A stretch of DNA of 64,000 nt, taken from positions 2,203,380 through 2,267,379 of the forward strand of contig CBDAVT010000002.1 in NCBI GenBank assembly GCA_965201145.1. The letters run 5' to 3'. The translations under genes were made by a program, and so were the position numbers. Positions 21-62,938 of this stretch are shown here, one piece after another. The stretch comes from Dehalococcoidia bacterium. GTDB lineage: Bacteria; Chloroflexota; Dehalococcoidia; Lucifugimonadales; UBA3495. Below the pieces are notes generated by a model. That model was not told the origin of the DNA, made no database searches, and saw only the letters and a program-made list of their open reading frames with translations. Each line of letters opens with the position of its first letter. Positions within the stretch are counted from its first letter, which is position 1.

Positions 21-203
21 CAGGGCTATCGCATATGAAAAAATTTCAGGCTCAGAACGGAACTTTCCGATGTTTTGGCGGCGCTTTACTGGGTAATCAA
101 CATCAAAACCAACGGTTTAAGTCTTAAATTACCCAAATTTAGCAGTTAAAAACGGAGATTTACCCGTCAATTGGCCTCTTAAATTCCATATGCGATAGCC
201 CTG
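21..203 (+). mobile_element. 183-bp MITE-like element, copy 1 (variant A)
   Basis: Starts CAGGGCTATCGCATATG and ends with its exact reverse complement (17-bp TIR). Flanked by a direct 10-bp duplication TAGGAAGCCC (11-20 and 204-213). No credible internal ORF. Confidence 0.9.
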
Positions 204-10172: not shown

Positions 10173-11949
10173 CTAATTTCCTGAATCCCGGTCGCCTTGC
10201 TCGGAGACGTGTCGAAATATTTGCTCATGGGCATACTCTTGAGCCTCGAACAAATCAACCAAATCTCTAATACTATTAACGTACAATCTCTTGTTATCGG
10301 CATTGTTAATCCTTAACTCTTCCAGTGTCAGCTTATTCCGCTTAATTCCGTTGCAAGTACGGTGGAGTAATGCCAGATTATAGAGTTCATCATTTCCTTG
10401 CATCCCTTCATTTGCTTTCCTGGCCCGGATGTGGTCAACTTCCAGCAGGGTATCATCCAGAGTTCCGTTGGGCCGGTAGGGTTTGTAGCCGCAACCCCAA
10501 CAGACCGGGCCAAATCGGTCCATCAGTAGCTTCTTGGCTTCCTCTTTGGGTATGCGCCCGGACCATGTAGAGGATTGTGATGGCAGTTTCTGCCCTTTCT
10601 TACGTTGTGAGATGTTGTAGAAAGGAGCGGGATCTATATCAGTACGCTTGGGCAATTGATCTGGGCCAATAGTATATGAAGTTGACTGTTGCAGTTCGGT
10701 TTGATGTTCTCCTAACGCTTTGTGTGTGCTGTTGGTCGTGTCAGAAAGGGCAAAACCATTTAAGTAAAACCTCCGTTTGAGCATAGTCCACGCTCTATAT
10801 GCCATGTCGCAAGCCAACCATCTACGGTTTAGTCTTTCAGCTGCGATGGCAGTTGTAGCACACCCGGCAAATATGTCCAAAACAACGTCGCCAGGATTAC
10901 TAGAAACTCGTATAATACGCTCATAGAGGTCTAATGGCTTTTGCGTGGCGTACCCGGTTTCCTCCAGCCTCCTTTTAACCAGTTGGTAGGCATATAGCTG
11001 TTTAATGTCGCTCCAAACTGTAGATAGTGGAACACCTTTGGATTCATCTAAATATTGAGTTTCTGTATTACCGTTAGGTCGTTTCCTTGTACGGAAGCGG
11101 CGGCCATCACCGTCTTTGTAGATGAAACGTTCACTGACGTACTTGTCTGAGTATGGGAGATAGATAGGATTGCAGGGCTATCGCATATGAAAAAATTTCA
11201 GGCTCAGAACGGAACTTTCCGATGTTTTGGCGGCGCTTTACTGGGTAATCAACATCAAAACCAACGGTTTAAGTCTTAAATTACCCAAATTTAGCAGTTA
11301 AAAACGGAGATTTACCCGTCAATTGGCCTCTTAAAATCCATATGCGATAGCCCTGGATAGGATTGTAAGTATGTTTACCGCCATTCCTAGCGTAGAATAA
11401 AAGCGTATCATGCGCTTTGACCTGTTTTGCTCCCCCTGCTCTTCCTCCTGACGGCGTACCATAACTCCACACGATTTCGTTCACCATATTGTTCGCTCCG
11501 AACACGGCATCTAATAACATACGCAAATAGCTGTTCGCATGGCTGTTACAGTGAACATATATACTACCTGTATCCTTTAGTATGCGTCTGCACTCGATTA
11601 ATCGGACTGCCATAAAAGCAATGTATGCCGCTTCGTTATCAGTCGCGCACGCTTCGACAGCTTGGATTACAGCATGGATGGCAGGATAATCATCTTGTAT
11701 TCGCATCTTCCATGTCGGATGCACGTCATCGTCCCAGTTCCAAACGTCCTTTACTCGTGTCTCTCCAATACCTTCGTTATGAGCGACACGATGCTCACGT
11801 GCTAAAGCCTTTTCTTCTTGTAGCTCAGCAGGTGTTATGGGGGGGTTAGGCTTTCTTTTGAACGTTTCATTAGCAGCAAATGGTGGGTCTATGGCAATAA
11901 GGTCAACGCACTCGTTGTTAAGGGACCGAAGGAACGTTAAGTTATCCAT
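10173..11949 (-). pseudogene. DNA methyltransferase (N4/N6, DPPF motif) fused to a C-terminal HNH nuclease domain, interrupted by a MITE
   Basis: N-terminal part has IAIDPPF (motif IV). After the MITE the same frame continues (YLPYSDKYVSERF...VLDIFAGCATT, motif I). The C-terminus has HNH-like EVDHIRARK...LALLHRTCNGIKRNK. Removing 11173-11355 plus one TSD restores one 527-aa ORF. Confidence 0.85.
11173..11355 (+). mobile_element. 183-bp MITE-like element, copy 2 (variant A)
   Basis: Same TIRs. 10-bp TSD GATAGGATTG (11163-11172 and 11356-11365). Lies inside the methyltransferase coding sequence. Confidence 0.9.
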
Positions 11950-16125: not shown

Positions 16126-16130
16126 AGTAT

Positions 16131-16170
16131 GCCCTCACCCCCGGCCCCTCTTCCCGAGGAAGAGGGGAGA
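16131..16170. repeat. REP-like palindromic element
   Basis: GCCCTCACCCCCGGCCCCTCTTCCCGAGGAAGAGGGGAGAG, immediately after the stop of the preceding gene. Confidence 0.7.
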
Positions 16171-18252: not shown

Positions 18253-18293
18253 CCTCTTCCCTCTCCCTGGGGGAGAGGGGCCGGGGTGAGGGC
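18253..18293. repeat. REP-like palindromic element
   Basis: CCTCTTCCCTCTCCCTGGGGGAGAGGGGCCGGGGTGAGGGC. Confidence 0.7.
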
Positions 18294-25420: not shown

Positions 25421-26368
25421 CTATTGGTGAGAACCGGTTGATACTAACGGCCTAATCTCTACTGCGGACTCCCGGGGGTACTTTCGCGGATAGGCAATGG
25501 GGCCGGCGCCGTCGGTATTTCCGGGAACGGCGGGCCGGGCGTTCCTTTGCTTGACCGTTGCCGGGGCGGCGCGCCGGGGATATTGGTCTGGCCGCGGCGC
25601 CAACTTCGCCGGCTGCGGGTTCGGCCGGACGGGAGCGAAATTACGGGCGGCGGCCGGAGCCTGCTCCAGGCCCCGGATTGAATTCAGGGGCCGGTCGTCT
25701 CTGCCACGGGCCAGATTCCAGGCTCGCCAGCCCTCCGGCCCGAACCGAGTCAATGCCAAGTCAGCCGGCATATCGGCGACCTGACCCAGGGTATGGAATC
25801 CGAGACGATGCAGAGCCGCTCGGGTGCTGGAGGAGACCGGCAGCAGGTCAACCGGGTGCGGCGCCAGGAATTTGGCCGCATCGGGCGACACCCGAACCGC
25901 TCCCGGCGCTCGGCTGCTGCGGGCGGCCACCAGCGCCGGGAATTTGCCCTCGCCGACGCCGATACCGGGATTCAGCCAGCGCGGCAGCAGGTTCAGCAGG
26001 GTGGCGACCAGCCGCGCTTCGCCGCCGTACATCGGCCCCAAACCGTCAATAGCCACGTAGGCGAGGCCCAGTTCCGCCGCCTCCACCCGGGCGCTGACTC
26101 CCAGCAGGCCGGCAAGGGCCTGTCGGAATACCCGGCAGTAATAGGCTTCGTCGGCTTCCAGCACAACGGCATGGGGCGGATAAATCAAAGCCGCTTCCGG
26201 GGGGGGGGGGGGGGGGGCCGCCAGCGTTGCTTCGGGCCGGGCGTCGACTACCCGGGCCGGGCTGCGGCTGCGGTCCGCTAAAATAACGGTACGTGGCTTG
26301 AGCTGCGGGTTTCGATGCAGCTCGGCCTCGACCCTCAGGTGTTTAATCAGGACACAAGCTACTTTCAT
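25421..26368 (-). pseudogene. Y-family DNA polymerase-like (ImuB/DinB-type) gene remnant
   Basis: The N-terminus MKVACVLIKHLRVEAELHRNPQL...VVLEADEAYY...AYVAIDGLGPMYGG...GVGEGKFPALVAA...LPVDLLP...LGFHTLGQVADMP is collinear with Y-family/ImuB proteins. The conserved A..GV.PGM segment is replaced by poly-Pro from a C19 run. The sequence becomes low-complexity after about residue 235. Confidence 0.55.
26199..26217. repeat. G19 homopolymer tract (C19 on the coding strand of the Y-family remnant)
   Basis: Counted directly. Translates as PPPPPP, in frame. Confidence 0.9.
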
Positions 26369-26731: not shown

Positions 26732-26748
26732 CCCCCCCCCCCCCCCCC
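26732..26748. repeat. C17 homopolymer tract
   Basis: Counted directly. Intergenic, 46 nt upstream of the riboswitch candidate. It is inverted relative to the G19 tract 514 bp away. Confidence 0.9.
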
Positions 26749-41453: not shown

Positions 41454-41636
41454 CAGGGCTATCGCATATGGATTTTAAGAGGCCAATTGACGGGTAAATC
41501 TCAGTTTTTAACTGCTAAATTTGGGTAATTTAAGACTTAAACCGTTGGTTTTGATGTTGATTACCCAGTAAAGCGCCGCCAAAACATCGGAAAGTTCCGT
41601 TTTGATCCTGAAAATTTTTCATATGCGATAGCCCTG
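41454..41636 (-). mobile_element. 183-bp MITE-like element, copy 3 (variant B, inverted)
   Basis: Same TIRs. 10-bp TSD GGGAAGGGGT (41444-41453 and 41637-41646). Lies about 220 nt upstream of the SBP start. Confidence 0.9.
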
Positions 41637-43276: not shown

Positions 43277-43792
43277 CTATTCGCCGACCCGGAGCGGCAG
43301 CGCTTCCCGGAGGACCGTCAGCGTCCCTTTTAGCTCGGACACTTCCCGGGAAATTTCGTCAACCCGGACCTGTAAGGCGTCGATACGGCGGTTCGTTTCA
43401 TCAATGCGGCGGTTCGTTAGGTCAATACGTTGATTTACATAGTCAAACCGCAGGTTCAGATCATCAATGCGCTGATTAACGGCGGCAAAACCATCGGTCA
43501 TCCGCACTTCCAAATCGTCGATGCGCTGATCTATCCGAGCTTCCAAATCATCGACCCGCTGATTGACCGCGGCAAAGCCCTGATCCATCCGAGCTTCCAA
43601 ATCATCGACCCGCTGATTGACCGCGGCAAAGCCCTGATCCATCCGGGATCCTAAATCATCGACCCGCTGATCCATCCGGGTTTCCAGGTCATTGGCCCGC
43701 CGGTTTTGCATTCGGGCTACGGCCAGAATTAAGGTGGCGAGCCCCACTCCCACCCCGATAATGGCGATTATAACTGCGATTTCACCGGACAT
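43277..43792 (-). CDS. N-terminally membrane-anchored coiled-coil protein with hendecad-type repeats
   Basis: 171-aa ORF. TM helix IAVIIAIIGVGVGLATLILAV followed by repeats R(M/I)DQ....NQR(V/I)DDLE. Confidence 0.6.
   Translation of the reverse strand: MSGEIAVIIAIIGVGVGLATLILAVARMQNRRANDLETRMDQRVDDLGSRMDQGFAAVNQRVDDLEARMDQGFAAVNQRVDDLEARIDQRIDDLEVRMTDGFAAVNQRIDDLNLRFDYVNQRIDLTNRRIDETNRRIDALQVRVDEISREVSELKGTLTVLREALPLRVGE
43533..43640. repeat. 54-bp coding tandem repeat (2 exact units plus degenerate flanks)
   Basis: ATCCGAGCTTCCAAATCATCGACCCGCTGATTGACCGCGGCAAAGCCCTGATCC occurs at 43533 and again at 43587. Confidence 0.85.
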
Positions 43793-44041
43793 TGTGCGAA
43801 CAGTCCTAAAAAATTACCTGGACAGAAGGTAGTATAAAGCAAGCGCAGCTTGATTGGAATAGCCTTGCTGAATGATATTGTTAACTTAAAGTGGAGGTAG
43901 CTATATAATTGTTGCCAGCTAATATTTCGGAGGGCGGCGCCTGGCCCTGGGGCCCGAGCCGCGCCCCCGCCTTTATGACCGGCGGCCCTATCCCTGGCTT
44001 GGCCCCGCGCCTACGGGGGAGGCTTGGGACCCGCTCCCAGA

Positions 44042-47779: not shown

Positions 47780-48718
47780 TTATTGCACTACCCCGGCCCC
47801 GTGGCGGCCGGTGTCCGCGGCCCGGTACAGGCTGCCCCCGGTGGTAGTCACGTACAGGTCGCCGCCATCCGGGCCGCCAAAGGCGCAGTTGGTGGGCGTT
47901 TCGGGCAGTCGATGCGACTCCAGAATGCGGCCCGTGGGCGTCAAGACGTAGGCCATCGGTCCCGGCCCGGATCCCTCGCCGCCAGCCACCGCTACTATGT
48001 TGCCGGCATCGTCCAGACACATACCATAGATGCCCCGTTGGACTCCCCGGCGGCCGCTTCCATCGTCCTGGCCGAAGGTGTGCAGCAGCCGATAGGGGCC
48101 CAGCGCGCCGCTCTCCAGAATGGGATAGGCCCGCAGCTCCCGCCTTCCTTCCGGGGCTTCGCTGCTTTCGGCCACGTACAAGACATCTTCCTCCGGCGCC
48201 AGCAGGAGGGCCATAGGCGCATCGGTATCGTAGGTCATTCGGGTAATGGGCGCATCCAGCCCCGACTCGGGGGATTCCAGCCGCAGCACCGAAGCGTGGT
48301 CGAGCTTATCGTGAATCTGGGGATTCATCGCCTCCCGCAGGTCGCCGTGAGGGTCGCAGAACCAGATTCGGTCCGACCCGTCCACCAGCAAATCCCGGGG
48401 TTGGTTGTGGTACACGCCATTCAGTTTGTGCGCCAGGGGCGAAGTGCTGCCGTCGGCATTGAACCGCACCAGCCGGCGGCCGCCGCTTTGGGCCCCGTAA
48501 AGGACACCGGAGCGGGAGAAGGCCAGCCCGCAGGTTCGGTTGGTCCAACGGCGAAAATCGGCAACTTGTCCCGAATCGGGGGCGTAGCGGAGGATGCGGT
48601 TGTTGGCGGCGTTGAAGGGGAAGGTCAACTGCGTGAACAGCAGCGCTTCCCCGTCCCAAACGGGCCCGTCGGTGGGACTGCCGAAGGGCCCGGCCACCGG
48701 TTGAAAATCCCAGTTCAC
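47780..48718 (-). CDS. SMP-30/gluconolactonase/LRE-family beta-propeller protein
   Basis: 312-aa ORF with the family-like pattern PTDGPVWDGEALLFT, RPNDL-like QPRDLLVDGSDRIWFCDP, and GPDGGDLYVTT. Confidence 0.7.
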   Translation of the reverse strand: MNWDFQPVAGPFGSPTDGPVWDGEALLFTQLTFPFNAANNRILRYAPDSGQVADFRRWTNRTCGLAFSRSGVLYGAQSGGRRLVRFNADGSTSPLAHKLNGVYHNQPRDLLVDGSDRIWFCDPHGDLREAMNPQIHDKLDHASVLRLESPESGLDAPITRMTYDTDAPMALLLAPEEDVLYVAESSEAPEGRRELRAYPILESGALGPYRLLHTFGQDDGSGRRGVQRGIYGMCLDDAGNIVAVAGGEGSGPGPMAYVLTPTGRILESHRLPETPTNCAFGGPDGGDLYVTTTGGSLYRAADTGRHGAGVVQ

Positions 48719-48801: not shown

Positions 48802-48984
48802 CAGGGCTATCGCATATGAAAAATTTTCAGGATCAAAACGGAACTTTCCGATGTTTTGGCGGCGCTTTACTGGGTAATCAACATCAAAACCAACGGTTTA
48901 AGTCTTAAATTACCCAAATTTAGCAGTTAAAAACTGAGATTTACCCGTCAATTGGCCTCTTAAAATCCATATGCGATAGCCCTG
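48802..48984 (+). mobile_element. 183-bp MITE-like element, copy 4 (variant B)
   Basis: Same TIRs. 10-bp TSD GGCGGGGTGG (48792-48801 and 48985-48994). Lies in a divergent intergenic region. Confidence 0.9.
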
Positions 48985-53449: not shown

Positions 53450-53564
53450 GGCGGCCGTCCTTAGTTTTAGAGTAGGGTAAAGGTTCGAAATAGGGGACAT
53501 TTTCCGGAGTATGTCGGGCATTATAACCAGCGGGCCGGGCCGGGGCAATTGCCGGTGCGGGACG

Positions 53565-53639
53565 GCCCTCACCCCTCACCCCGCTCCCCCAGGGAGAGGG
53601 GCCGGGGTGAGGGCTTCCCCCTGGCCGGGAGTGAGGGCC
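53565..53639. repeat. compound REP-like palindrome
   Basis: GGCCCTCACCCCTCACCCCGCTCCCCCAGGGAGAGGGGCCGGGGTGAGGGC...GGGAGTGAGGGCC. Confidence 0.7.
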
Positions 53640-53713
53640 GCCGCGACAGTACCCAAGTCGGCAGCGATGGGTTAAAATAGTGCTACTATCCAGAACCCGG
53701 GAGGCCCTATACC

Positions 53714-54175
53714 ATGGACATGGGCGACATCGCCGCCATTGCTGCCATCTCCACCGTATTTCTCGCCATAGTCGGACTTTCGGCCACGGCCATTTTCCGT
53801 ATCGGCAAACTGACCGAGGCCACGGACAGGATACCGGAAGAGTTCCGCGCCGAACTCCAGACCGTGGAAGCTCGCAACGAAGAACGCTTCCAGCGAGTAG
53901 ATGACCGTTTCCAGTATATGGAGGCCTTGAATGAAGAACGCTTCCGACGCATGGAAGAGCGTATGGAAGAACGCTTCCAGCGTATGGAAGAGCGTATGGA
54001 AGAACGCTTCCAGCGTATGGAAGATCTCATTCACCATAACGAGGAGTTAATTCGTTCCGAGAGTGAACGAATTCAGGGGCAGATTCTCATTTTGCAGCAA
54101 GCGATAATGACCCACTCCCACGACCAGGACGGCAACGTCATGTTTCGGGTTCCTATGCCTGATACTGAGGAATAG
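53714..54175 (+). CDS. N-terminally membrane-anchored coiled-coil protein with 11-residue EERFQRMEERM repeats
   Basis: 153-aa ORF. TM helix IAAIAAISTVFLAIVGLSATAIF. 33-bp DNA tandem repeat units at 53933, 53966 and 53999. Confidence 0.6.
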   Translation: MDMGDIAAIAAISTVFLAIVGLSATAIFRIGKLTEATDRIPEEFRAELQTVEARNEERFQRVDDRFQYMEALNEERFRRMEERMEERFQRMEERMEERFQRMEDLIHHNEELIRSESERIQGQILILQQAIMTHSHDQDGNVMFRVPMPDTEE

Positions 54176-54193
54176 TTCCGCCTGTTTGCAGAC

Positions 54194-54332
54194 GGCCCTC
54201 ACCCCTCTCCCCGGAAGCCCTCACCCCTAACCCCTCTCCCGCGAGGCGAGGGGGACTTTGGGCAAACTCTCCCCTCTCCTCCAGGGAGAGGGGCCGGGGG
54301 TGAGGGCTTCCCCCTGGCCGGGGGTGAGGGCC
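54194..54332. repeat. cluster of REP-like palindromes
   Basis: Three nested or adjacent copies of the CCCTCACCCC / CCCCTCTCC ... GGAGAGGGGCCGGGGGTGAGGG motif, between two convergent genes. Confidence 0.7.
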
Positions 54333-54447
54333 GCCGGGGAGAGAAGCCAGGGCAGAGGGCAAAACCAGGCCCGGTTGGAAGTTTACGCTTCCAACCGGGC
54401 CTTTTCCCGTTTGCCGTTTAGATACGCCGGCCGTTGGCCGGCTGCAA

Positions 54448-57400
54448 CTAGCCGTTGTCCAGGGTGAACTTGAACTGGCCGCTGGCCGTGCCTCCGTTGG
54501 AGTCCGTGGCCGTTATCTTGATAGTCAACTCCTGGGAGGCGGCTCCTCCGGCGGTCAGCGTTAGCGTGCTGCCCGACCAGGAACCCGTTACCTTGTTCCG
54601 GGCGATCTCGTTCAGCTTCCCGGTTTTGACCGCTCCGGTGCGCTGGTGGGTGGTGGTCACCTCAACTGCGTAGGTCAGGCCGTCGCCGCTGAAGTGGCTG
54701 GTCATATCCAGCGCGCTGGTTTCGCCTTCCGACAACTCAACGTCGTCGAACTCGTCAATCAGCGTTGCCGGGTTATCCGGCTCCGGGGTAGGTTCCGGAG
54801 TGGGCTCGGGCGTAGGCTCCGGGGTCGGTTCCGGAGTAGGCTCGGGCGTAGGCTCCGGGGTCGGTTCCGGAGTAGGCGCAGGCGTAGGCTCCGGGGTAGG
54901 TTCCGGAGTGGGCTCGGGCGTAGGCTCCGGGGTCGGTTCCGGAGTGGGCTCGGGAGTAGGCTCGGGGGTGGGTTCCGGAGTAGGCGCAGCCGTCGGTTCC
55001 GGCGTGGCCGGGGGAACCGCAACCAGCGTCAGCGTGAAGTCGTCGCTGGCGGTGCCACTGTTCTCGTCGGTAGCCGTGATGGCGATGGTCAGCGACTGCA
55101 AGGCCGCCGGGCCGCCGGTCAGGGTCAGGACGCTGCCGTCCCACGCGCCGGTTACCTTGTTGACCGCAATCGTGTTGAGTTCGCCGGTCTTCTGGTTGCC
55201 GGTGCGCTGGTTGGTGGTGGTAACCATCACCTGGTAGGTGAGGCCGGCCCCTCTGAAGTGGTCGTCCATATCAAGGGCCTGCTCGCCGCCGTTCCAGATG
55301 TCCAGGTCATCGAAAGCGGCAATCAGCGTCGCATCCGGCCCTGGCGTGGGATCCGGCGTCGGCGCAGGCGTGGGTTCCGGGGTCGGTTCCGGGGTAGGCG
55401 CTGCCGTCGGCTCCGGGGTGGGTTCCGGGGTTGGCGCTGGCACTGCCGTTGCGGTGGGCACTGGCGTGGCCGTGGCGGTCGGTCCCGGCGCGGTTGTGGG
55501 CGCCGGCGTCGTCGCCTCGGTCGTCAGGCCGCTCACTTCCACCGTAAAGTCGCCGGCGGTGGAGCTGTAGAACGTCGTCGCTTCGATCGTGTAGGTCCCG
55601 GCGGACAGCGTTCTGGTTATCTGTGAGTTGGTATAAACGCCGCCGTCATCGTTTTCCTCGATTACGCTGCCGTTCGTACCCTCGCCCGAAAGCAGGTACA
55701 TATATGCGTCCCGTCCGATTATAAAGTCGCCCGGTGTGGTTGGATCCGGGACATCGGCCGGAACGATGAGGTCGATCTGAACTTCAGACTCCTCGCTGAG
55801 GGTGAAGCTGTAGTACTTGGCGTAAGCGCCCGGGGGACGATTGGCGGAACCGCAAGAGCTGTCCCAGGTACCCTCCACCGTAACGCTGTCCGAGGACTGG
55901 TCCAGGGCCTCTACCACACAGCCTGGCATGGGCGTTGGCGTCGGCTCAGGCGTGGGCTCGGGCGTCGGTTCCGGCGTGGGGGTTGGTGTCGGCGTCGGTG
56001 GAAGCTCAGGCGTCCCCTCTACCGTGCCGATGGCGAGAACGTTGTCGTCCGAGTCCAGGGCCACAACTTCAACGCTGTAGAGCTGATCCGCCGTCAGGCC
56101 GCTGATGGCGTGGGCATTGGCGGAATCGGTGGCAACGCGGGCGCTGTATGGGCCGATCACCTTCTGGACGACGCCGTTGTTGTCGATCTCATTAACCTCG
56201 CCCCAGCGGATGCTGTGTGCGGCAGCGCCGCTGAACGCGGTCCAGCTGATGGAGAGCGATGTTCCGTCGCCGCCGTCGGTTGCCGTCAAGCTATCAATCT
56301 GTGGGACGATGGGGGTTATCCCGCTGTCGGGCGGGCCGCCCGGCGCGGTTCCTTGCGGCTTGCCGGTCAGTAGAGCCGAGGGGACACGGAGCTGGACATA
56401 GTTGTTGTTGCCCCAGCAGCGGGTCTTGCCCGTGCTGGTGATTGCGCAGGCGTGCTCCTTGCCGACGTCGACGCGCACATACCGCTCGTCATCCGGCGGA
56501 TGCGTCAGACCCTTCGGGCGGTAAGTGTAGATGCCGTTCTCGTTGAAGTACACGTAGACCGGCATCGAATCGACCCGCTCGAACTTGGCGTAGCCGTAGT
56601 GCGTGCCGCCGATAGTGTAGCCGGACGAGCGCTCCCACCAGAAGTCCGTTTCGTCCGTGTCCGTCGCGCCGCGGTTCAGGCGGTCGTTGTTGTACCACGA
56701 CACCTGGAATGGCTCGCTGGAGCCGGTCCAATCGAAAGTCGTGGGACTGGTGCCGTCCCAGAGCGTCAACTGCTCGCCGATGTGCCACGAGGCGTTCCAG
56801 CAGCGGATGTGCCCCTCCAGCCGGGTGGCGCAGATGCCGCCCGGGCCCATGCCGACGGAGGTGTAGGCCCCGTTGGGCATAAAGTTGCCCCGGTCAAAGG
56901 GATAATCCCGGCCGGACACGGCGCCGCTGCCGAATTCAAAGCAGTCCAGCCCGAGGTCGTGGGCGATGAGACAGAGGGTATTGTTGGAAACTTCCAACGC
57001 ATCAAGGCTGTAGAGCTCCGCTCGTTTGATGGCCGGACCGCCACCCAATGACGAGATATCAGGGCCCTGGATCGAAACGCGCTGGTCGCCATCCCCTCTG
57101 CTGCTCGGCGAGTCGGCGCAGCGGGCCGCTCTGAGGTCAAGACCCCCAAAGGACGCGGTGTCCGGTATCAGACCACAGGTGAAATTGCCCCAGTCGTCCA
57201 CTGCGAGCTTGACTATATTATGATTCGCTTCGTGCGGGAAGTCTCCCTGCTTCGGGGTGCTGTCCTTGAAGCATATAGGCTGGTTACTATCCTCCTGTAC
57301 CAGACAGGCGTGGCGCCCGCCGACGGCAACGTCCTTCACGTTAGGGTAGGCAGTGCCGCTGCTGTCGGATATGATGGTGCCGATTTTTTTGCCGAGGGAC

Positions 57401-59259
57401 TCTCGGGAGTATCCCTTGCCCCAGCAGACCGCGTTCTTGCCGGCGGTGATGCCGCAGGTGATCGAGTCCCCGGCGGAGACTGCGTCCCAGTGGTACTTCG
57501 TGCCGTTGAGGTCGGTCGGGACGTTCGTTTCGCCGTAGGTGTTCTTGCCCCAGCAGACCAGCGCGCCTCTGCCGTGGTTCAGCGCGCAGGTGTGGTAGAA
57601 GCCGGCGCTGATGTCCACATCGCCCTGCATGATCGGGGAGGCGGCATCGCCGAACAGGCTCAGGTCATGCACCGTCGGGTAGTTGGTTTCGTACCCCTCC
57701 ATATAGACGACGAAAGATTTTCGGGCTGGTTCCCCGGCCGGAGGCGCGTTGTGACGTGTGCAGGTGATGCGTATGTTGTCGCCACCGATGGGGGTGTCGA
57801 GATGCTCAGAGCAAATCACGCCCGATGAGGTTTTCACCCCTCCCGGCAGGACGGCGGCGTAGCGATAGCCGCCGGGCATCTCCGCCACCGCGGGCTGGAT
57901 CTTGACATACTCCCCGTCAGACCATTCGTGCATGTACTCCGGGGCGTTCAGCCGGAAGCGGTAGCCGTCCCACTTGGGCCAGACCATCTCATCGGTTCCG
58001 TGCCAGTCGCCGGCCTTGCCGTCGTAGTTCCAGTCGGACCAGTACTGCGGGGCAACGACGCCGTCGTACAAGCCCTTGTTGCCGTGATCGCCGGTGCCGC
58101 TGCCGTCGCCGTCGCTCATGATCAGCTGGATCCTGATCCGCTTGTCGCGGTTCTGGACCATATCCTCAGACATGCTCATGCGCAGGTAGTTGACGCCGTC
58201 GTTCATATAGCCTGGGCCGATGGGGCAGCCCTTGGCGTACTTTTTCCCTTTGTAGACGTAGCTGCCGGGCCGCACTGTCGGCTCGCGGCGCGTTTCGTCA
58301 TAAACTATGGTGTCCTGGTGACAGGGGCCCGTAATGAGCCGGAGGGGGCCCGAATCGGGCTCGCCATCCTTCGGCGTCGGCACAGAGGCGTGGTGCTGCC
58401 AGTAGTCCCGCTGATCCCACTGGCTGTCGAAGTAGCCGTTGGAGTTGGCGTAGTTGATCTGGACGTAGATGCCCTTGATGTAGCGGGCGGGCGGCGGATT
58501 GTCGAACTTCCAGGCGATGGTGAAGCCGCGCTTGCCGTCTTCCGGCTCAACGTCAACGTAGTTGAGCCAGGCGTCAAAGCCCATAGGGTCTGGGTTCGCC
58601 TCGGCCGGCTCCAGGTTGAACAGGCAACTAGCCAAATCCGCTCCTGCGACTGAGTTCAACCCGGCGTTCTTTCCGCCCGGCACACTCGCAACCGGGATGT
58701 CATCGTGGTCCGGGACGGTTACGCCGATGGAGTTCTTGAGGTGATACTCATGGTAGGCGTATTGGGTGCCCTCTACTTGGTTTGATACGTCTCCCCGGGC
58801 GGTATCTGCATTGCCGGAGATATACCAGCCCTTGGGTAGGTTCGAGCCTAGGTACTGATACTTGTACCCCACATAGTCCGCGGTGCTCAGGGCATCGGGG
58901 ATGTCCCAGCCGCAGACCACCACCGGGTCGGTGTCCGTGGTGATGTCCTTGTAATGGACGGTGACCTCCATGTCCAGGTCCGAGTTGGCGCCCTGGCCGA
59001 AGGTCCCCAAGTTCAGCGTGCGGTCCTTCAGCGTGAACTTGGTGCCGACGCCGTAGTAGTCCTCGTCGTTATAGTTGTTGGTTCCCGAGGTGTGGCGCCC
59101 GTCGCGGAAGAAGGTGTCTTCCTGCAGGGACGGCGTGGCGCCGTACTGCACCAGCACTTCGTCCAGGACAACGTGGTTATTGCTGTCGCTGGTGTCGGTC
59201 AGCTTGATGACGATCGTCAGCCCGCCGGCGCCGCCATTGGGCGGGTCGAGGCTGGGCAC
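54448..59259 (-). CDS. giant secreted multidomain protein (main reading frame)
   Basis: 1603-aa ORF. Contains RCC1-like repeats (C.L...G...CWG.N.YG), an FN3-like segment, a pre-peptidase C-terminal (PPC)-like domain (YYSFTLSEES...TYTIEATTF), three PT/PEPT linkers and two about 100-aa Ig/cadherin-like repeats at the C-terminus. It has no signal peptide of its own. Confidence 0.8.
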   Translation of the reverse strand: MPSLDPPNGGAGGLTIVIKLTDTSDSNNHVVLDEVLVQYGATPSLQEDTFFRDGRHTSGTNNYNDEDYYGVGTKFTLKDRTLNLGTFGQGANSDLDMEVTVHYKDITTDTDPVVVCGWDIPDALSTADYVGYKYQYLGSNLPKGWYISGNADTARGDVSNQVEGTQYAYHEYHLKNSIGVTVPDHDDIPVASVPGGKNAGLNSVAGADLASCLFNLEPAEANPDPMGFDAWLNYVDVEPEDGKRGFTIAWKFDNPPPARYIKGIYVQINYANSNGYFDSQWDQRDYWQHHASVPTPKDGEPDSGPLRLITGPCHQDTIVYDETRREPTVRPGSYVYKGKKYAKGCPIGPGYMNDGVNYLRMSMSEDMVQNRDKRIRIQLIMSDGDGSGTGDHGNKGLYDGVVAPQYWSDWNYDGKAGDWHGTDEMVWPKWDGYRFRLNAPEYMHEWSDGEYVKIQPAVAEMPGGYRYAAVLPGGVKTSSGVICSEHLDTPIGGDNIRITCTRHNAPPAGEPARKSFVVYMEGYETNYPTVHDLSLFGDAASPIMQGDVDISAGFYHTCALNHGRGALVCWGKNTYGETNVPTDLNGTKYHWDAVSAGDSITCGITAGKNAVCWGKGYSRESLGKKIGTIISDSSGTAYPNVKDVAVGGRHACLVQEDSNQPICFKDSTPKQGDFPHEANHNIVKLAVDDWGNFTCGLIPDTASFGGLDLRAARCADSPSSRGDGDQRVSIQGPDISSLGGGPAIKRAELYSLDALEVSNNTLCLIAHDLGLDCFEFGSGAVSGRDYPFDRGNFMPNGAYTSVGMGPGGICATRLEGHIRCWNASWHIGEQLTLWDGTSPTTFDWTGSSEPFQVSWYNNDRLNRGATDTDETDFWWERSSGYTIGGTHYGYAKFERVDSMPVYVYFNENGIYTYRPKGLTHPPDDERYVRVDVGKEHACAITSTGKTRCWGNNNYVQLRVPSALLTGKPQGTAPGGPPDSGITPIVPQIDSLTATDGGDGTSLSISWTAFSGAAAHSIRWGEVNEIDNNGVVQKVIGPYSARVATDSANAHAISGLTADQLYSVEVVALDSDDNVLAIGTVEGTPELPPTPTPTPTPEPTPEPTPEPTPTPMPGCVVEALDQSSDSVTVEGTWDSSCGSANRPPGAYAKYYSFTLSEESEVQIDLIVPADVPDPTTPGDFIIGRDAYMYLLSGEGTNGSVIEENDDGGVYTNSQITRTLSAGTYTIEATTFYSSTAGDFTVEVSGLTTEATTPAPTTAPGPTATATPVPTATAVPAPTPEPTPEPTAAPTPEPTPEPTPAPTPDPTPGPDATLIAAFDDLDIWNGGEQALDMDDHFRGAGLTYQVMVTTTNQRTGNQKTGELNTIAVNKVTGAWDGSVLTLTGGPAALQSLTIAITATDENSGTASDDFTLTLVAVPPATPEPTAAPTPEPTPEPTPEPTPEPTPEPTPEPTPEPTPEPTPAPTPEPTPEPTPEPTPEPTPEPTPEPTPEPTPEPDNPATLIDEFDDVELSEGETSALDMTSHFSGDGLTYAVEVTTTHQRTGAVKTGKLNEIARNKVTGSWSGSTLTLTAGGAASQELTIKITATDSNGGTASGQFKFTLDNG
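54777..55008. repeat. coding microsatellite-like repeat (18-bp period) encoding PEPTPE linker
   Basis: GGCTCCGGGGT(A/C)GGTTCCGGAGT(G/A)GGCTCGGGCGTA reiterated. Shorter versions lie at about 55330-55500 and 55925-56000. Confidence 0.8.
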
Positions 59260-59697: not shown

Positions 59698-59717
59698 CCC
59701 CCCCCCCCCCCCCCCCC
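59698..59717. repeat. C20 homopolymer tract (G20 on the coding strand), 4 nt upstream of the giant-protein start codon
   Basis: Counted directly. The mRNA-sense context is G20-TAAG-ATG. Confidence 0.9.
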
Positions 59718-59968: not shown

Positions 59969-60481
59969 CTAGTCCAAAGTAAGCACCAGGGTCAGCAGGG
60001 CGCTAACCGTTGCAATCACCATCGCCGCCGAGCCGCCAACAATGGCATAAAAGAGCCGGTCGATTCGGGAATTAACACTCTGCTGCATGGCATCAATCCG
60101 GGCGGACACCAAATCAATCCGAGTGTCCATACTTTGCTGCAGGGCATCAATCCGGGCGTCCATACTCTGCTGCAGGGAGATTATCAGGGCATTTGTCGCC
60201 CGCTGGTCCTCCCGCAGCTCGGACACTGCCGTCTCCACCCCCGTCAGCCGGGCATTCGTTTCCCGCTGGTCCTCCCGCAGCTCGGACACTGCCGTCTCCA
60301 CTCCCGTCAGCCGGGCATTCGTTTCCCGCTGGTTGGCCTGCATCTCCCCGCGCAGCTCCACCAGGCCCGTCTCTACCCCCGTTAGCCGGGAATTGGTTTC
60401 CCGCAAATCGTCCCGCAGGTCTGCAACCGAGTGCTCTACCGCCGTCATCCGTTCCGACAAGTCATCCGTAGTTGTTACCAT
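59969..60481 (-). CDS. tail-anchored coiled-coil protein, tandem paralog 1
   Basis: Start at MVTTTDDLSERMTAVE (AGGAGA RBS). Modular 11/21/25-aa repeats (RLTGVETAVSELREDQRETNA). C-terminal TM LFYAIVGGSAAMVIATVSALLTLVLTLD. Confidence 0.7.
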   Translation of the reverse strand: MVTTTDDLSERMTAVEHSVADLRDDLRETNSRLTGVETGLVELRGEMQANQRETNARLTGVETAVSELREDQRETNARLTGVETAVSELREDQRATNALIISLQQSMDARIDALQQSMDTRIDLVSARIDAMQQSVNSRIDRLFYAIVGGSAAMVIATVSALLTLVLTLD

Positions 60482-60512: not shown

Positions 60513-60540
60513 ACTATACCGGATACCGGCCCATTGTCAA
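60513..60540 (-). promoter_or_regulatory. sigma70-type promoter of paralog 1
   Basis: Minus-strand TTGACA-N16-TATAGT, about 30 nt upstream of the start codon. Conserved upstream of all four paralogs. Confidence 0.6.
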
Positions 60541-60628: not shown

Positions 60629-61048
60629 CTAGTCCAAAGTAAGCACCAGGGTCGGCAGGGCGCTAACCGTCGCAATCACCATAGCCGCCGAGCCGCCAAC
60701 TATGGCATAAAAGAGCCGGTCAATGCGGGAATTAACACTCTGTTGCAAGGTTTCAATCCGGGCGGCCATCTCGCTCTGCAAGGAATCGATCCGGGAGGTC
60801 ATCTCGCTTTGTAAGGTATCAATCCGGGAGGTCACGCCATCGATCCGGGCGTCCACACTTTGTTGCAGGGAGATTATCAGGGTATTCGTCGCCCGCTGGT
60901 CCTCCCGCAGCTCGGACACTGCCGTCTCCACCGCCGTCAACCGGGCATTGGTTTCCCGATGGTTGGCCTGCATCTCCCCCCGCACCTCCAACACCGAGTG
61001 TTCCACCGCCGTCATCCGTTCCGACAAGTCATCCGTAGTTGTTACCAT
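60629..61048 (-). CDS. tail-anchored coiled-coil protein, tandem paralog 2
   Basis: Same N-terminus, RBS (GGAGGAAAGGAAACT) and C-terminal TM as the others. Different set of internal modules. Confidence 0.7.
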   Translation of the reverse strand: MVTTTDDLSERMTAVEHSVLEVRGEMQANHRETNARLTAVETAVSELREDQRATNTLIISLQQSVDARIDGVTSRIDTLQSEMTSRIDSLQSEMAARIETLQQSVNSRIDRLFYAIVGGSAAMVIATVSALPTLVLTLD

Positions 61049-61079: not shown

Positions 61080-61107
61080 ACTATACCGGATACCGGCCCA
61101 TTGTCAA
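61080..61107 (-). promoter_or_regulatory. sigma70-type promoter of paralog 2
   Basis: Minus-strand TTGACA-N16-TATAGT. The MITE copy 5 boundary is 19 bp upstream of the -35. Confidence 0.6.
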
Positions 61108-61126
61108 TCCACCGCAGTACCCGGCC

Positions 61127-61309
61127 CAGGGCTATCGCATATGGATTTTAAGAGGCCAATTGACGGTTAAATCTCCGTTTTTAACTGCTAAATTTGGGTA
61201 ATTTAAGACTTAAACCGTTGGTTTTGATGTTGATTACCCAGTAAAGCGCCGCCAAAACATCGGAAAGTTCCGTTCTGAGCCTGAAATTTTTTCATATGCG
61301 ATAGCCCTG
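61127..61309 (-). mobile_element. 183-bp MITE-like element, copy 5 (variant A, inverted)
   Basis: Same TIRs. TSD (A)GTACCCGGCC (61116/61117-61126 and 61310/61311-61320). Confidence 0.9.
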
Positions 61310-61317
61310 AGTACCCG

Positions 61318-61433
61318 GCCCTCACCCCTAGCCCCTCTCCCACGAGGCGAAGGGGAACTTTGGCGGATAAGCCGGCTACTGCCCCAAACATAAACTCCCC
61401 TTTCCCCCAGGGAGAGGGGCCGGGGGTGAGGGC
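61318..61433. repeat. compound REP-like doublet
   Basis: CCCTCACCCCTAGCCCCTCTCCC...spacer...CCCCTTTCCCCCAGGGAGAGGGGCCGGGGGTGAGGGC. The same doublet occurs at 62185-62297 and 54215-54310. Confidence 0.7.
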
Positions 61434-61477
61434 TTTCGGGACGGGGCCGAGCTTTCGGGAGGAGAAGGGGGTAGGAG

Positions 61478-61915
61478 CTAGTCCAAAGTAAGAACCAGGG
61501 TCAGCAGGGCGCTAACCGTCGCAATCACCATAGCCGCCGAGCCGCCAACAATGGCATAAAAGAGCCGGTCAATGCGGGAATTAACACTCTGTTGCAGGGA
61601 GATTATCAGACCATTCGTCGCCCTCTGGTCCTCCCGCAGCTCGGACACCGCCGTCTCCACCGCCGTCAACCGGGCGTTGGTTTCCTGCAAATCACCCCGT
61701 ACCTCCAATACCGAGTGTTCCACCGCCGTCATCCGGGCATTGGTTTCCCTCTGGTTGGCCTGCATCTCCCCGCGCAACTCCACCAAGCCCGTCTCCACCG
61801 CCGTCATCCGAGCGTTGGTTTCCCGATGGTTGGCCTGCATCTCCCCGCGCAACTCCACCAGGCCCGTCTCCACCGCCGTCATCCGTTCCGACAAATCATC
61901 CGTAGTTGTTACCAT
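61478..61915 (-). CDS. tail-anchored coiled-coil protein, tandem paralog 3
   Basis: Same termini. Contains two TGLVELRGEMQAN(H/Q)RETNARMTAVE modules. Confidence 0.7.
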   Translation of the reverse strand: MVTTTDDLSERMTAVETGLVELRGEMQANHRETNARMTAVETGLVELRGEMQANQRETNARMTAVEHSVLEVRGDLQETNARLTAVETAVSELREDQRATNGLIISLQQSVNSRIDRLFYAIVGGSAAMVIATVSALLTLVLTLD

Positions 61916-61946
61916 AGCTTCCTTTCCTCCGTAAGCTCTGCCAACC

Positions 61947-61974
61947 ACTATACCTGATACCGGTCCATTGTCAA
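61947..61974 (-). promoter_or_regulatory. sigma70-type promoter of paralog 3
   Basis: Minus-strand TTGACA-N16-TATAGT. The MITE copy 6 boundary is 19 bp upstream of the -35. Confidence 0.6.
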
Positions 61975-61993
61975 TCCACCGCAGTACCCGACC

Positions 61994-62176
61994 CAGGGCT
62001 ATCGCATATGAAAAAATTTCAGGCTCAGAACGGAACTTTCCGATGTTTTGGCGGCGCTTTACTGGGTAATCAACATCAAAACCAACGGTTTAAGTCTTAA
62101 ATTACCCAAATTTAGCAGTTAAAAACGGAGATTTACCCGTCAATTGGCCTCTTAAATTCCATATGCGATAGCCCTG
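61994..62176 (+). mobile_element. 183-bp MITE-like element, copy 6 (variant A)
   Basis: Same TIRs. 10-bp TSD GTACCCGACC (61984-61993 and 62177-62186). Confidence 0.9.
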
Positions 62177-62184
62177 GTACCCGA

Positions 62185-62297
62185 CCCTCACCCCTAACCC
62201 CTCTCCCGCGAGGCGAGGGGGACTTTGGCGGATAAGCCGGCTACTGCCCCAAACACAAACTCCCCTCTCCCTGGGGGAGAGGGGCCGGGGGTGAGGG
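62185..62297. repeat. compound REP-like doublet
   Basis: CCCTCACCCCTAACCCCTCTCCCGCGAGGCGAGGGGG...CCCCTCTCCCTGGGGGAGAGGGGCCGGGGGTGAGGG. Confidence 0.7.
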
Positions 62298-62340
62298 TTT
62301 TCCGGACGGGGCCGGGTTTTCGGGAGGAAGGGGGTAAGCG

Positions 62341-62790
62341 CTAGTCCAAAGTAAGAACCAGGGTCAGCAGGGCGCTAACCGTCGCAATCACCATAGCCGC
62401 CGAGCCGCCAACGATGGCATAGAAGAGCCGGCCAATTCGGGAATTAACACTCTGTTGTAAGGTATCAATCCGGGCGGTCATCTCGCTTTGTAAGGTATCA
62501 ATCCGGGAGGTCACGCCATCGATCCGGGCGTCCACACTTTGTTGCAGGGAGATTATCAGGGCATTCGTCGCCCGCTGGTCCTCCCGCAGTTCGGACACTG
62601 CCGTCTCCACCGCCGTCATCCGGGCATTGGTTTCCCGATGGTTGGCCTGCATCTCCCCGCGCAACTCCACCAGGCCCGCCTCCACCGCCGTCAACAGAGC
62701 ATTGGTTTCCCGCAAATCACTCCGCAGCTCCACCAGGCCCGTTTCCACCGCCGTCATCCGTTCCGACAAATCATCCGTAGTAGTTACCAT
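62341..62790 (-). CDS. tail-anchored coiled-coil protein, tandem paralog 4
   Basis: Same termini. Its module order differs again. Confidence 0.7.
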   Translation of the reverse strand: MVTTTDDLSERMTAVETGLVELRSDLRETNALLTAVEAGLVELRGEMQANHRETNARMTAVETAVSELREDQRATNALIISLQQSVDARIDGVTSRIDTLQSEMTARIDTLQQSVNSRIGRLFYAIVGGSAAMVIATVSALLTLVLTLD

Positions 62791-62821
62791 AGTTTCCTTT
62801 CCTCCGTAAGTTCTGCCAACC

Positions 62822-62849
62822 ACTATACCTGATAGCGGCCCATTGTCAA
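62822..62849 (-). promoter_or_regulatory. sigma70-type promoter of paralog 4 (unoccupied MITE target next to it)
   Basis: Minus-strand TTGACA-N16-TATAGT. The single-copy GTACCCGGCC at 62859-62868 is the empty-site equivalent of the copy 5/6 targets. Confidence 0.6.
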
Positions 62850-62865
62850 TCCACCGGGGTACCCG

Positions 62866-62938
62866 GCCCTCACCCCTCTCCCGCGAGGCGAGGGGTGTTT
62901 CTTTTTCGTCACCCCTCCCTCAGGAAGAGGGCAGGGGA
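62866..62938. repeat. REP-like palindromes
   Basis: GCCCTCACCCCTCTCCCGCGAGGCGAGGGG ... CACCCCTCCCTCAGGAAGAGGGCAGGGGAG. Confidence 0.6.

Follow-up and report, generated by a model that had tools for sequence, protein, structure and literature searches.

Two copies of a 183-bp MITE (a miniature transposable element with inverted repeats), numbered 5 and 6 below, occupy homologous sites upstream of two adjacent paralogous genes in a 64-kb window of a Dehalococcoidia genome (contig CBDAVT010000002.1, positions 2,203,380–2,267,379; the window is this whole stretch, and all window coordinates count from its first nucleotide). The reading preferred here, which is held with good though not full confidence, is that copies 5 and 6 are the products of separate recent MITE transpositions catalyzed by a promoter-homing transposase of the ISAs1 family.

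Anatomy of the MITE copies and their insertion sites

The window carries six MITE copies that share 97–100% identity and fall into three single-nucleotide polymorphism sublineages in an alignment of the six. All six copies consist of a perfect 17-nt terminal inverted repeat (TIR; CAGGGCTATCGCATATG) enclosing 149 bp of internal sequence, and every copy is flanked by a target-site duplication (TSD) of 10–11 bp (6/6). The copies display the features by which a MITE is recognized: they are short, non-coding, bounded by TIRs, flanked by TSDs, dispersed and nearly identical. No gene-sized open reading frame (ORF) lies wholly inside the 183-bp element, and the ORFs listed over copy 5 extend into its flanks. 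The six TSDs share no sequence motif except GC-richness. An Rfam scan of the window identified no family, and a metagenome scan with a 30-mer from the MITE interior gave 0 matches.

Copies 5 (61127–61309, minus strand) and 6 (61994–62176, plus strand) are located upstream of the predicted promoters of paralogs P2 and P3, respectively. These paralogs belong to a tandem array of four minus-strand genes (P1–P4) whose products are small coiled-coil proteins that carry a hydrophobic segment at the C-terminus. The predicted promoters of P2 (61080–61107, minus strand) and P3 (61947–61974, minus strand) both have the form TTGACA-N16-TATAGT, and their −35 hexamers (61107–61102 and 61974–61969) each lie 19 nt from the end of the adjacent MITE. 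Copy 5 is bordered by an 11-bp TSD (AGTACCCGGCC; 61116–61126 on the left and 61310–61320 on the right), and copy 6 is bordered by a 10-bp TSD (GTACCCGACC; 61984–61993 and 62177–62186). The left and right TSDs match perfectly in both cases. The predicted P4 promoter (62822–62849, minus strand) has the same consensus as those of P1–P3 but no MITE at its site, and the vacant homologous target (GTACCCGGCC; 62859–62868) is positioned 9 nt from the P4 −35 hexamer. The predicted P1 promoter (TTGACA-N16-TATAGT; 60513–60540, minus strand) is also unoccupied, and its upstream sequence differs from those of the other paralogs. Each of the four promoters matches 11 of the 12 consensus positions. A metagenome contig from an independent sample (L117) displays an empty P4-type site beside a P2/P4-mosaic gene. 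No hairpin or palindrome was found at the P2–P4 target apart from GGGTACCC in P4. Given the 25 TTGACA hexamers on both strands of the window, the chance of at least two of five independent insertions falling at exactly offset 19 is p ~1.5e-6.

A sequence-only reading of the window had described MITEs at homologous sites 19 nt from the −35 hexamers of P2 and P3, in mutually inverted orientations, and an uninterrupted target at P4. The present analysis confirms each of these points. The 10-bp target given in that reading stands for copy 6, whereas the TSD of copy 5 is corrected to 11 bp.

The other four copies all have 10-bp TSDs. Copy 1 (21–203, plus strand; TSD TAGGAAGCCC) is opposite in orientation to copy 5 and 100% identical to copy 6, and the head of a repetitive extragenic palindromic (REP) element adjoins it at position 211. 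Copy 4 (48802–48984, plus strand; TSD GGCGGGGTGG) is positioned upstream of a minus-strand gene (47780–48718). Copy 3 (41454–41636, minus strand; TSD GGGAAGGGGT) resides in the 3′ intergenic region between convergent genes, and copy 2 (11173–11355, plus strand; TSD GATAGGATTG) is found inside a 557-codon methyltransferase/HNH-like ORF. Excision of copy 2 together with one TSD reconstitutes this ORF over positions 10176–11847 (minus strand). The reconstituted ORF has a methyltransferase motif (DPPF) and a C-terminus that is HNH-like, and it lies in a patch of 48% GC within the 60% GC window. Copy 2 is a gene-disrupting insertion in a restriction-modification-like gene that is probably foreign.

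Affiliation with the ISAs1 family

Relatives of the MITE were found by a TIR scan of GTDB genomes, in which at least 114 loci were listed. The internal sequence of the MITE is absent from the listed loci, none of which overlaps the window. The window TIR is found on 1188–1217-bp insertion sequences (ISs) with 10-bp TSDs in Dehalococcoidia metagenome-assembled genomes (MAGs; loci L076, L091 and L103). The MITE and these three ISs agree over the 17-nt TIR and 4–6 subterminal nucleotides, and the MITE matches both subterminal regions of the parent ISs (…CATATGGATTTT and …CATATGAAAA). The transposases of L076 (373 aa) and L091 (369 aa) both contain the PF13808 and PF01609 domains. Against NF033564, the NCBIfam equivalog for ISAs1, they score 385 and 388 bits, respectively (cut-off 70), a signature that belongs to the transposases of these relatives and not to a copy from the source genome. 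Because the window MITE shares its TIR and subterminal sequences with ISAs1-family ISs, it is a non-autonomous derivative of that family.

ISAs1-family elements, as described in ISfinder and the Siguier reviews, have TIRs of ~14–22 bp that start with CAGGG and TSDs of ~8–10 bp. The TIR CAGGGCTATCGCATATG and the observed TSDs agree with this description. As in ISAs1, IS1358 and the H-repeat elements, the TIR begins with CAGGG and the TSDs measure 8–11 bp; the TSD is 10 bp long in 59 of the 74 non-redundant elements with both ends (range 8–11). The autonomous relatives are ~1.2 kb long with a single transposase ORF (NF033564), as is typical of the family. Unlike the ISs of the family, the window contains only the 183-bp non-coding derivative, and no transposase gene for the MITE was seen within it. 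A literature search found no report of insertion specificity for the ISAs1 family.

Spacing between element ends and −35 hexamers

To describe the position of the elements relative to promoters, every TIR end was read outward, and the offset at which a TTG starts was recorded. The Chloroflexi set comprises 38 ends, including those of the window, from 17 elements in which both ends and a TSD are present and from additional single ends. In this set, 12/38 ends have a TTG at offset 19 and 4/38 have one at offset 18, while the remaining offsets have 0–2 TTGs each and 3 at one offset. The Chloroflexi result was taken as the hypothesis for a replication on 120 metagenome loci collected by a clade-specific pattern. 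Among the 93 non-redundant ends of the metagenome set that do not belong to the hairpin type described below, nine have TTG at offset 19, compared with 1.24 expected (Poisson 6.5e-6). A blind scan of the metagenome set, covering all trinucleotides at all offsets, ranks TTG at 19 as the third-strongest cell. The two stronger cells derive from residual hairpin flanks that were missed by the filter. When counted by element, TTG is present at offset 18 or 19 on at least one side in 18/38 non-hairpin elements, compared with ~2 expected by a rough estimate.

The hexamers at offset 18 or 19 resemble −35 elements (TTGACA five times, TTGCAA four times and others). A −10-like hexamer follows at a distance of N16–18 after 13/27 such TTGs (48%) but after only 2.7% of the full set of TTGs in those loci. 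Element ends are separated from TTG by 18–19 nt regardless of whether the TSD is 9, 10 or 11 bp long. The same arrangement is observed at copy 4, where the MITE is followed by CCACCCCGCC, the nucleotides cccgtttcc and a TTGACA (48782–48777)-N18-TACAAT (48758–48753) promoter-like sequence. TTGACA is located at exactly 19 nt, and the GTG start codon of the downstream gene (47780–48718, minus strand) lies 35 nt after TACAAT. No REP element is present at the copy 4 site.

The type of target differs with the identity of the transposase to that of L076. Elements whose transposases are at least 78% identical to the L076 transposase have promoter-type targets, those with 57–60% identity belong to neither target class and those with at most 45% identity mostly have hairpin-type targets. 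Either end of the element may face the promoter in the relatives, depending on the copy. A comparison of co-oriented downstream ORFs on the promoter side with those on the opposite side provided no discrimination in these GC-rich sequences.

Several observations weigh against promoter homing. TTG is found at 18–19 nt in only about half of the non-hairpin elements, and copies 2 (in a gene) and 3 (in a 3′ intergenic region) are off-pattern. The misfit of these two copies indicates that the spacing is a preference and not an absolute rule. Elements with TTG on both sides number 2 compared with 2.6 expected, and the pattern fits statistically with a weak symmetric preference for TTG half-sites in place of recognition of a promoter complex. 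The control for the −10-like hexamers drew on all TTGs and not on intergenic TTGs alone. Moreover, the promoter model leaves it unexplained that the offset of the REP head at copy 1 is within 1 nt of those at copies 5 and 6. A hypothetical left −35 hexamer of copy 1 at 19 nt would occupy positions −5 to 1, beyond the window; position 1 is compatible with it and barely informative.

In three Dehalococcoidia MAGs, the motif GATTGCAAAGTC is found repeatedly at 17–18 nt from an element end (L005 2441+, L006 508+, L058 329+ and L067 2383−). The motif might represent either a repeated promoter or the terminus of a different repeat element that is used as a recurrent target.

REP elements at the insertion sites

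In the window, a REP unit is made up of a CCCTCACCCC head and, after it, a CCCCTCTCC…GGAGAGGGG hairpin; 17 exact heads are found in the 64 kb. The units are often paired as inverted doublets, resembling REP doublets forming hairpins (REPINs) or bacterial interspersed mosaic elements (BIMEs), and several have T-rich tails. One doublet of two inverted units lies between P3 and copy 5 (61319–61432), and another doublet lies between P4 and copy 6 (62185–62297). REP sites are also observed at 205–250, 16126–16170, 18253–18293 and 53560–54340. On the minus strand, the REP hairpin and the T-rich tail after it resemble a terminator of the upstream paralog, and the REP adjacency of copies 5 and 6 may represent a terminator REP placed directly against the next promoter.

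At copies 1, 5 and 6, the TSD is followed by a REP head, and the outer TSD edge lies 2–3 nt inside that head. At copy 5, the right TSD ends with the 2 nt that open the REP head at 61319–61328, and the right TSD of copy 6 shares 2 nt with the head at 62185–62194. This adjacency involves 3/6 copies (2 independent sites), with p ~3e-6 for at least two of five events under a criterion chosen post hoc. The REP hairpins stay intact at the window insertions, and the flanking by broken REPs that defines type 1 of Tobes & Pareja is not observed.

A different relationship with REP-like sequences is found among relatives that carry the same TIR and are mostly alphaproteobacterial; many of them come from metagenome contigs. 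In these elements, a 9–10-bp TSD is centered on the loop of a REP-like hairpin (CCCTCCCC-loop-GGGGAGGG). The hairpin type accounts for 34/74 elements and has the flank consensus CCc....GGGGGaGGg. Examples include L074 (5819–6055), which has CCCCTTGCGG on both sides, L002 (7502–7668), L026, L060 and many others among L001–L254. The transposases of the hairpin type are 35–45% identical to those of the promoter-type clade. No paper linking ISAs1 to insertion in REP-like hairpins was found in the literature.

The TSD edges of copies 1, 5 and 6, located 2–3 nt into a REP head with only 17 heads in 64 kb, raise the alternative that the transposase recognizes the 5′ head of the CCCTCACCCC REP unit and inserts the element immediately outside that head, with the −35 spacing arising as a by-product of a compact intergenic layout. 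The insertion of distant same-TIR relatives into REP-like hairpin loops favors this explanation, as does the REP targeting documented for the IS3, IS110, IS4, IS256 and IS5 families (PMC1525189). REP-directed insertion is nevertheless unlikely. Copy 4 keeps the 19-nt spacing to the −35 hexamer without a REP, and a REP-like flank is found in 0 promoter-type relatives. The REP hairpin of the window is never split, unlike the hairpins targeted by the distant relatives, and those relatives have transposases that diverge widely from the clade whose ends match the MITE. The adjacency criterion was, in addition, set after the data had been seen. Because copy 4 and the promoter-type relatives lack a REP, adjacency to a REP head is not required at copy 4 and is at most a possible secondary factor. 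The sequence-only reading had counted three of six copies at a REP boundary; the adjacency is real, but the REP is not upheld as the determinant. The determinant common to copy 4 and the relatives is likely the 19-nt spacing to a −35 hexamer rather than a REP. In view of the hairpin-targeting relatives, REP-type DNA may still exert a residual attraction, though REP targeting is unlikely as a contributing determinant.

The spacing could also have arisen in the absence of targeting if insertion were random and purifying selection spared harmless sites upstream of promoters. Intergenic sites that spare the promoter are the least harmful, and the TSD retains native DNA to about −54. However, a spacing fixed to a single nucleotide, as in the offset-19 counts of both end sets, is beyond the reach of selection. 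Copy 2 is located inside a gene, and the same nucleotide was struck twice in paralogous promoters. Selection without targeting is thus a very unlikely explanation.

Independence of copies 5 and 6

The sequences of copies 5 and 6 and of their flanks indicate two independent, recent insertions and not one duplicated or flipped copy. The TSD is 11 bp long at copy 5 and 10 bp long at copy 6, and each is perfect on both sides. A G/A difference between the two sites occurs in both TSD halves of each copy. Given these differences, had one ancestral insertion been copied together with the paralog unit, an indel and two parallel substitutions would have been required. The two MITEs also belong to different sublineages, because copy 6 is identical to copy 1 despite a distance of 61 kb, while copy 5 groups with copy 2. 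Copy 5 differs from copy 2 by 1 nt and from copy 6 at 2/183 positions (98.9% identity), and it has the column-164 variant common to copies 2–4 plus one private change.

The homologous flanks of copies 5 and 6 differ at 5/78 promoter-side and 15/164 REP-side positions (~8%). At a divergence of 8%, the binomial probability of at most 2 differences per 183 positions is ~3e-5, and the MITEs are ~8-fold less diverged than their flanks. Judged by this contrast, copies 5 and 6 are much younger than the tandem duplication of the paralogs.

The sites are homologous, and the perfect TIRs, which would make a flip in place scarless, suggested to the sequence-only reading that independent insertion and inversion could not be told apart. 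Under the inversion alternative, a single ancestral insertion would have been copied along with the paralog unit, by tandem duplication or gene conversion, and one copy then flipped in situ through its TIRs, which would make the MITE an invertible promoter-proximal element. The paralog array clearly recombines, as illustrated by the P2/P4 mosaic of L117. The two histories are nonetheless separable by TSD length, the G/A difference in both TSDs, the sublineages and the low divergence of the MITEs. Duplication and flipping would need a 1-nt TSD indel, an identical G/A substitution in the two TSD copies at one site and homogenization of the MITEs to 98.9% identity within flanks that are ~92% identical, and it would have to accommodate the exact match of copy 6 to the distant copy 1. 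The TIRs measure merely 17 bp, no recombinase ORF was found at 59–64 kb and no promoter-like site is predicted within the MITE. This history is therefore highly improbable, and an invertible switch, the second possibility raised by the sequence-only reading, is not supported.

The segment resembles the fimS/FimBE and hin/hix systems in being short, bounded by inverted repeats, located beside a promoter and present in both orientations at paralogous sites. It differs from these systems in the lack of a recombinase at 59–64 kb and of a predicted promoter inside the segment, and its two orientations occur at two loci with different TSDs. A composite transposon, in which copy 5, P3 and copy 6 were inserted as one 1050-bp unit, is the least credible history and was rejected: its outer flanks (GTACCCGGCC and GTACCCGACC) resemble a 10-bp TSD with one mismatch, but each MITE bears its own perfect TSD, the inner flanks are ordinary paralogous intergenic sequence and the one-mismatch outer duplication is simply the paralogous target.

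Separate insertion has left copies 5 and 6 as 183-bp inverted repeats that are 684 bp apart and enclose a REP doublet, P3 and the P3 promoter. The two copies are a plausible substrate for RecA-mediated homologous inversion around P3, which is more realistic than inversion between the 17-bp TIRs. By bracketing P3, they could cause this gene to be inverted or lost. Look-ups of ThuA and the Fe-ADH gene yielded only short-read contigs that stop at each MITE or REP, with L117 and its empty P4-type site as the one exception. In many samples, Logan short-read contigs from this same organism (L115–L134) stop at MITE or REP positions, and one of them (L125) spans the window from ~220 to ~11200, from the REP at copy 1 to copy 2.

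The paralog array and other features of the window

The four paralogs occupy positions 59969–60481 (P1), 60629–61048 (P2), 61478–61915 (P3) and 62341–62790 (P4), all on the minus strand. P1 displays the coiled-coil region and the C-terminal hydrophobic segment, and P3 lies with its promoter between the inverted copies 5 and 6. All scores of P1–P4 against Pfam and NCBIfam are below the family cut-offs. Exact-protein look-ups returned no record for P2, P3 (two start choices), P4 or the homologs P0001 and P0002, and only 5 homologs (62–79% identity) were found among 5.8 billion database proteins. The paralogs are mosaic: P2 and P4 share 96% identity, either of them shares ~84–85% identity with P3, and the numbers of internal repeats vary. 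In L117 (1–150), a P2-like 5′ coding end is joined to a P4-type upstream region.

A second locus (43277–43792, minus strand) encodes a repeat-rich coiled-coil membrane protein with an N-terminal transmembrane segment and repeats of an 18-aa type. Over 61 nt, a ThuA-like sequence at 43926–43986 shares 87% identity with the ThuA gene beside P4 (63528–63588), which suggests that a coiled-coil gene and a ThuA-like gene form a recurring pairing. Long homopolymer tracts are observed at 59698–59717 (C20), 26199–26217 (G19) and 26732–26748 (C17). The C20 tract (G20 on the coding strand) stops 4 nt short of the start codon (ATG) of an ORF with a signal peptide, and this ORF overlaps the beginning of a 1603-aa PT-repeat surface protein (54448–59259). 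These tracts may be phase-variable or assembly artefacts.

Discussion

In the proposed mechanism, an ISAs1-family transposase encoded outside the window would mobilize the 183-bp MITE in trans. The ISAs1 clade would prefer to place an element end 18–19 nt upstream of a σ70-type −35 hexamer, with a 9–11-bp staggered cut located roughly at −45 to −55. The near-identical strong promoters of P2, P3 and P4 would offer the same target, of which two are occupied and that of P4 is still vacant. A strong target preference, one of the two explanations put forward for the coincidence of the sites in the sequence-only reading, is supported. The perfectly symmetric TIRs would lead to a random orientation at each event, and opposite orientations would be expected half of the time. 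The 17 promoter-proximal bp of the MITE are the same in both orientations. Since the TSD would preserve native DNA to about −54 and the same 17-bp TIR would abut it in either orientation, the core promoters of P2 and P3 would be left untouched; an effect on the upstream regulation of P2 and P3 is possible. The positional association of element ends with −35 and −10 motifs holds across genomes, and active target choice by the transposase would account for the spacing, either through direct reading of TTG or through tethering to promoter-bound RNA polymerase.

TnGBS integrative and conjugative elements, the ISLre2 family and the ISKra4 group, which carry prokaryotic Mutator-like transposases (p-MULT3/4), are the nearest known systems (Brochet 2009; Guerillot 2014, PMC3942029). 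TnGBS elements integrate 15–17 bp upstream of −35 hexamers, and the ISLre2 family and the ISKra4 group are likewise found upstream of promoters; all of them use Mutator-like transposases (Guerillot 2014, PMC3942029). Promoter-upstream homing has so far been tied to one superfamily, for which tethering to the transcription initiation complex was proposed, and the asymmetry of the inverted repeats (IRs) sets the orientation, whereas near-perfect IR symmetry leads to promoters on either side of the IS (Guerillot 2014, PMC3942029). This behavior of symmetric IRs agrees with the mutual inversion of copies 5 and 6 and with the mixed orientations among the relatives.

The ISAs1 elements resemble the TnGBS, ISLre2 and ISKra4 group in their fixed short distance upstream of a σA/σ70 −35 hexamer, with the promoter firing away from the element, in the occurrence of symmetric-IR elements in both orientations and in the sparing of the promoter. 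Unlike TnGBS/ISLre2/ISKra4 (p-MULT3/4), the transposase belongs to ISAs1 (PF13808 and PF01609) and is unrelated to the Mutator-like enzymes. The spacing is 18–19 nt rather than the 15–17 of TnGBS, the TSD is 10 bp long and a MITE serves as the cargo. Only about half of the sites conform here, unlike in that group, and the behavior is read from sequence alone. With an ISAs1-type transposase, the elements function like the TnGBS/ISLre2/ISKra4 group without being members of it.

The three window copies that adjoin a REP recall the REP-targeting ISs (IS1397/ISKpn1, ISPpu9/10, ISPa11 and ISRm22; PMC1525189), and the distant same-TIR relatives resemble ISRm22 in inserting at the palindrome axis of REP-like hairpins. 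Unlike the REP-targeting ISs, the window insertions are located at the outer edge of the REP head and leave the REP unsplit (Tobes & Pareja 2006, PMC1525189), and the promoter-type copy 4 has no REP. The families reported to target REPs do not include ISAs1 (Tobes & Pareja 2006, PMC1525189).

A broader proposal is more tentative and falls somewhat short of being favored: one ISAs1 clade may have independently evolved landmark-directed integration ~19 bp upstream of the σ70 −35 hexamer, possibly via RNA polymerase tethering and convergently with TnGBS/ISLre2/ISKra4, while sister clades with the same TIR home to REP-like hairpin loops. Promoter-upstream homing is rare among bacterial transposons and is known for Mutator-like elements; the ISAs1-family clade and its MITEs would be the new case. 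If the proposal is true, a second, unrelated DDE family has adopted this strategy, which would then have evolved repeatedly as a ‘safe-haven’ solution. The clade would provide an independent system for identifying the recognized feature, be it the TTG motif or the σ or α subunits of RNA polymerase. Homing would also explain the build-up of MITEs beside strong promoters and the repeated strikes on paralogous promoters. The lineage would represent a natural case of a switch in target mode, between a protein-marked and a structure-marked site, with the MITEs as passive reporters. For annotation, such MITEs could mark real promoters in poorly studied Chloroflexi.

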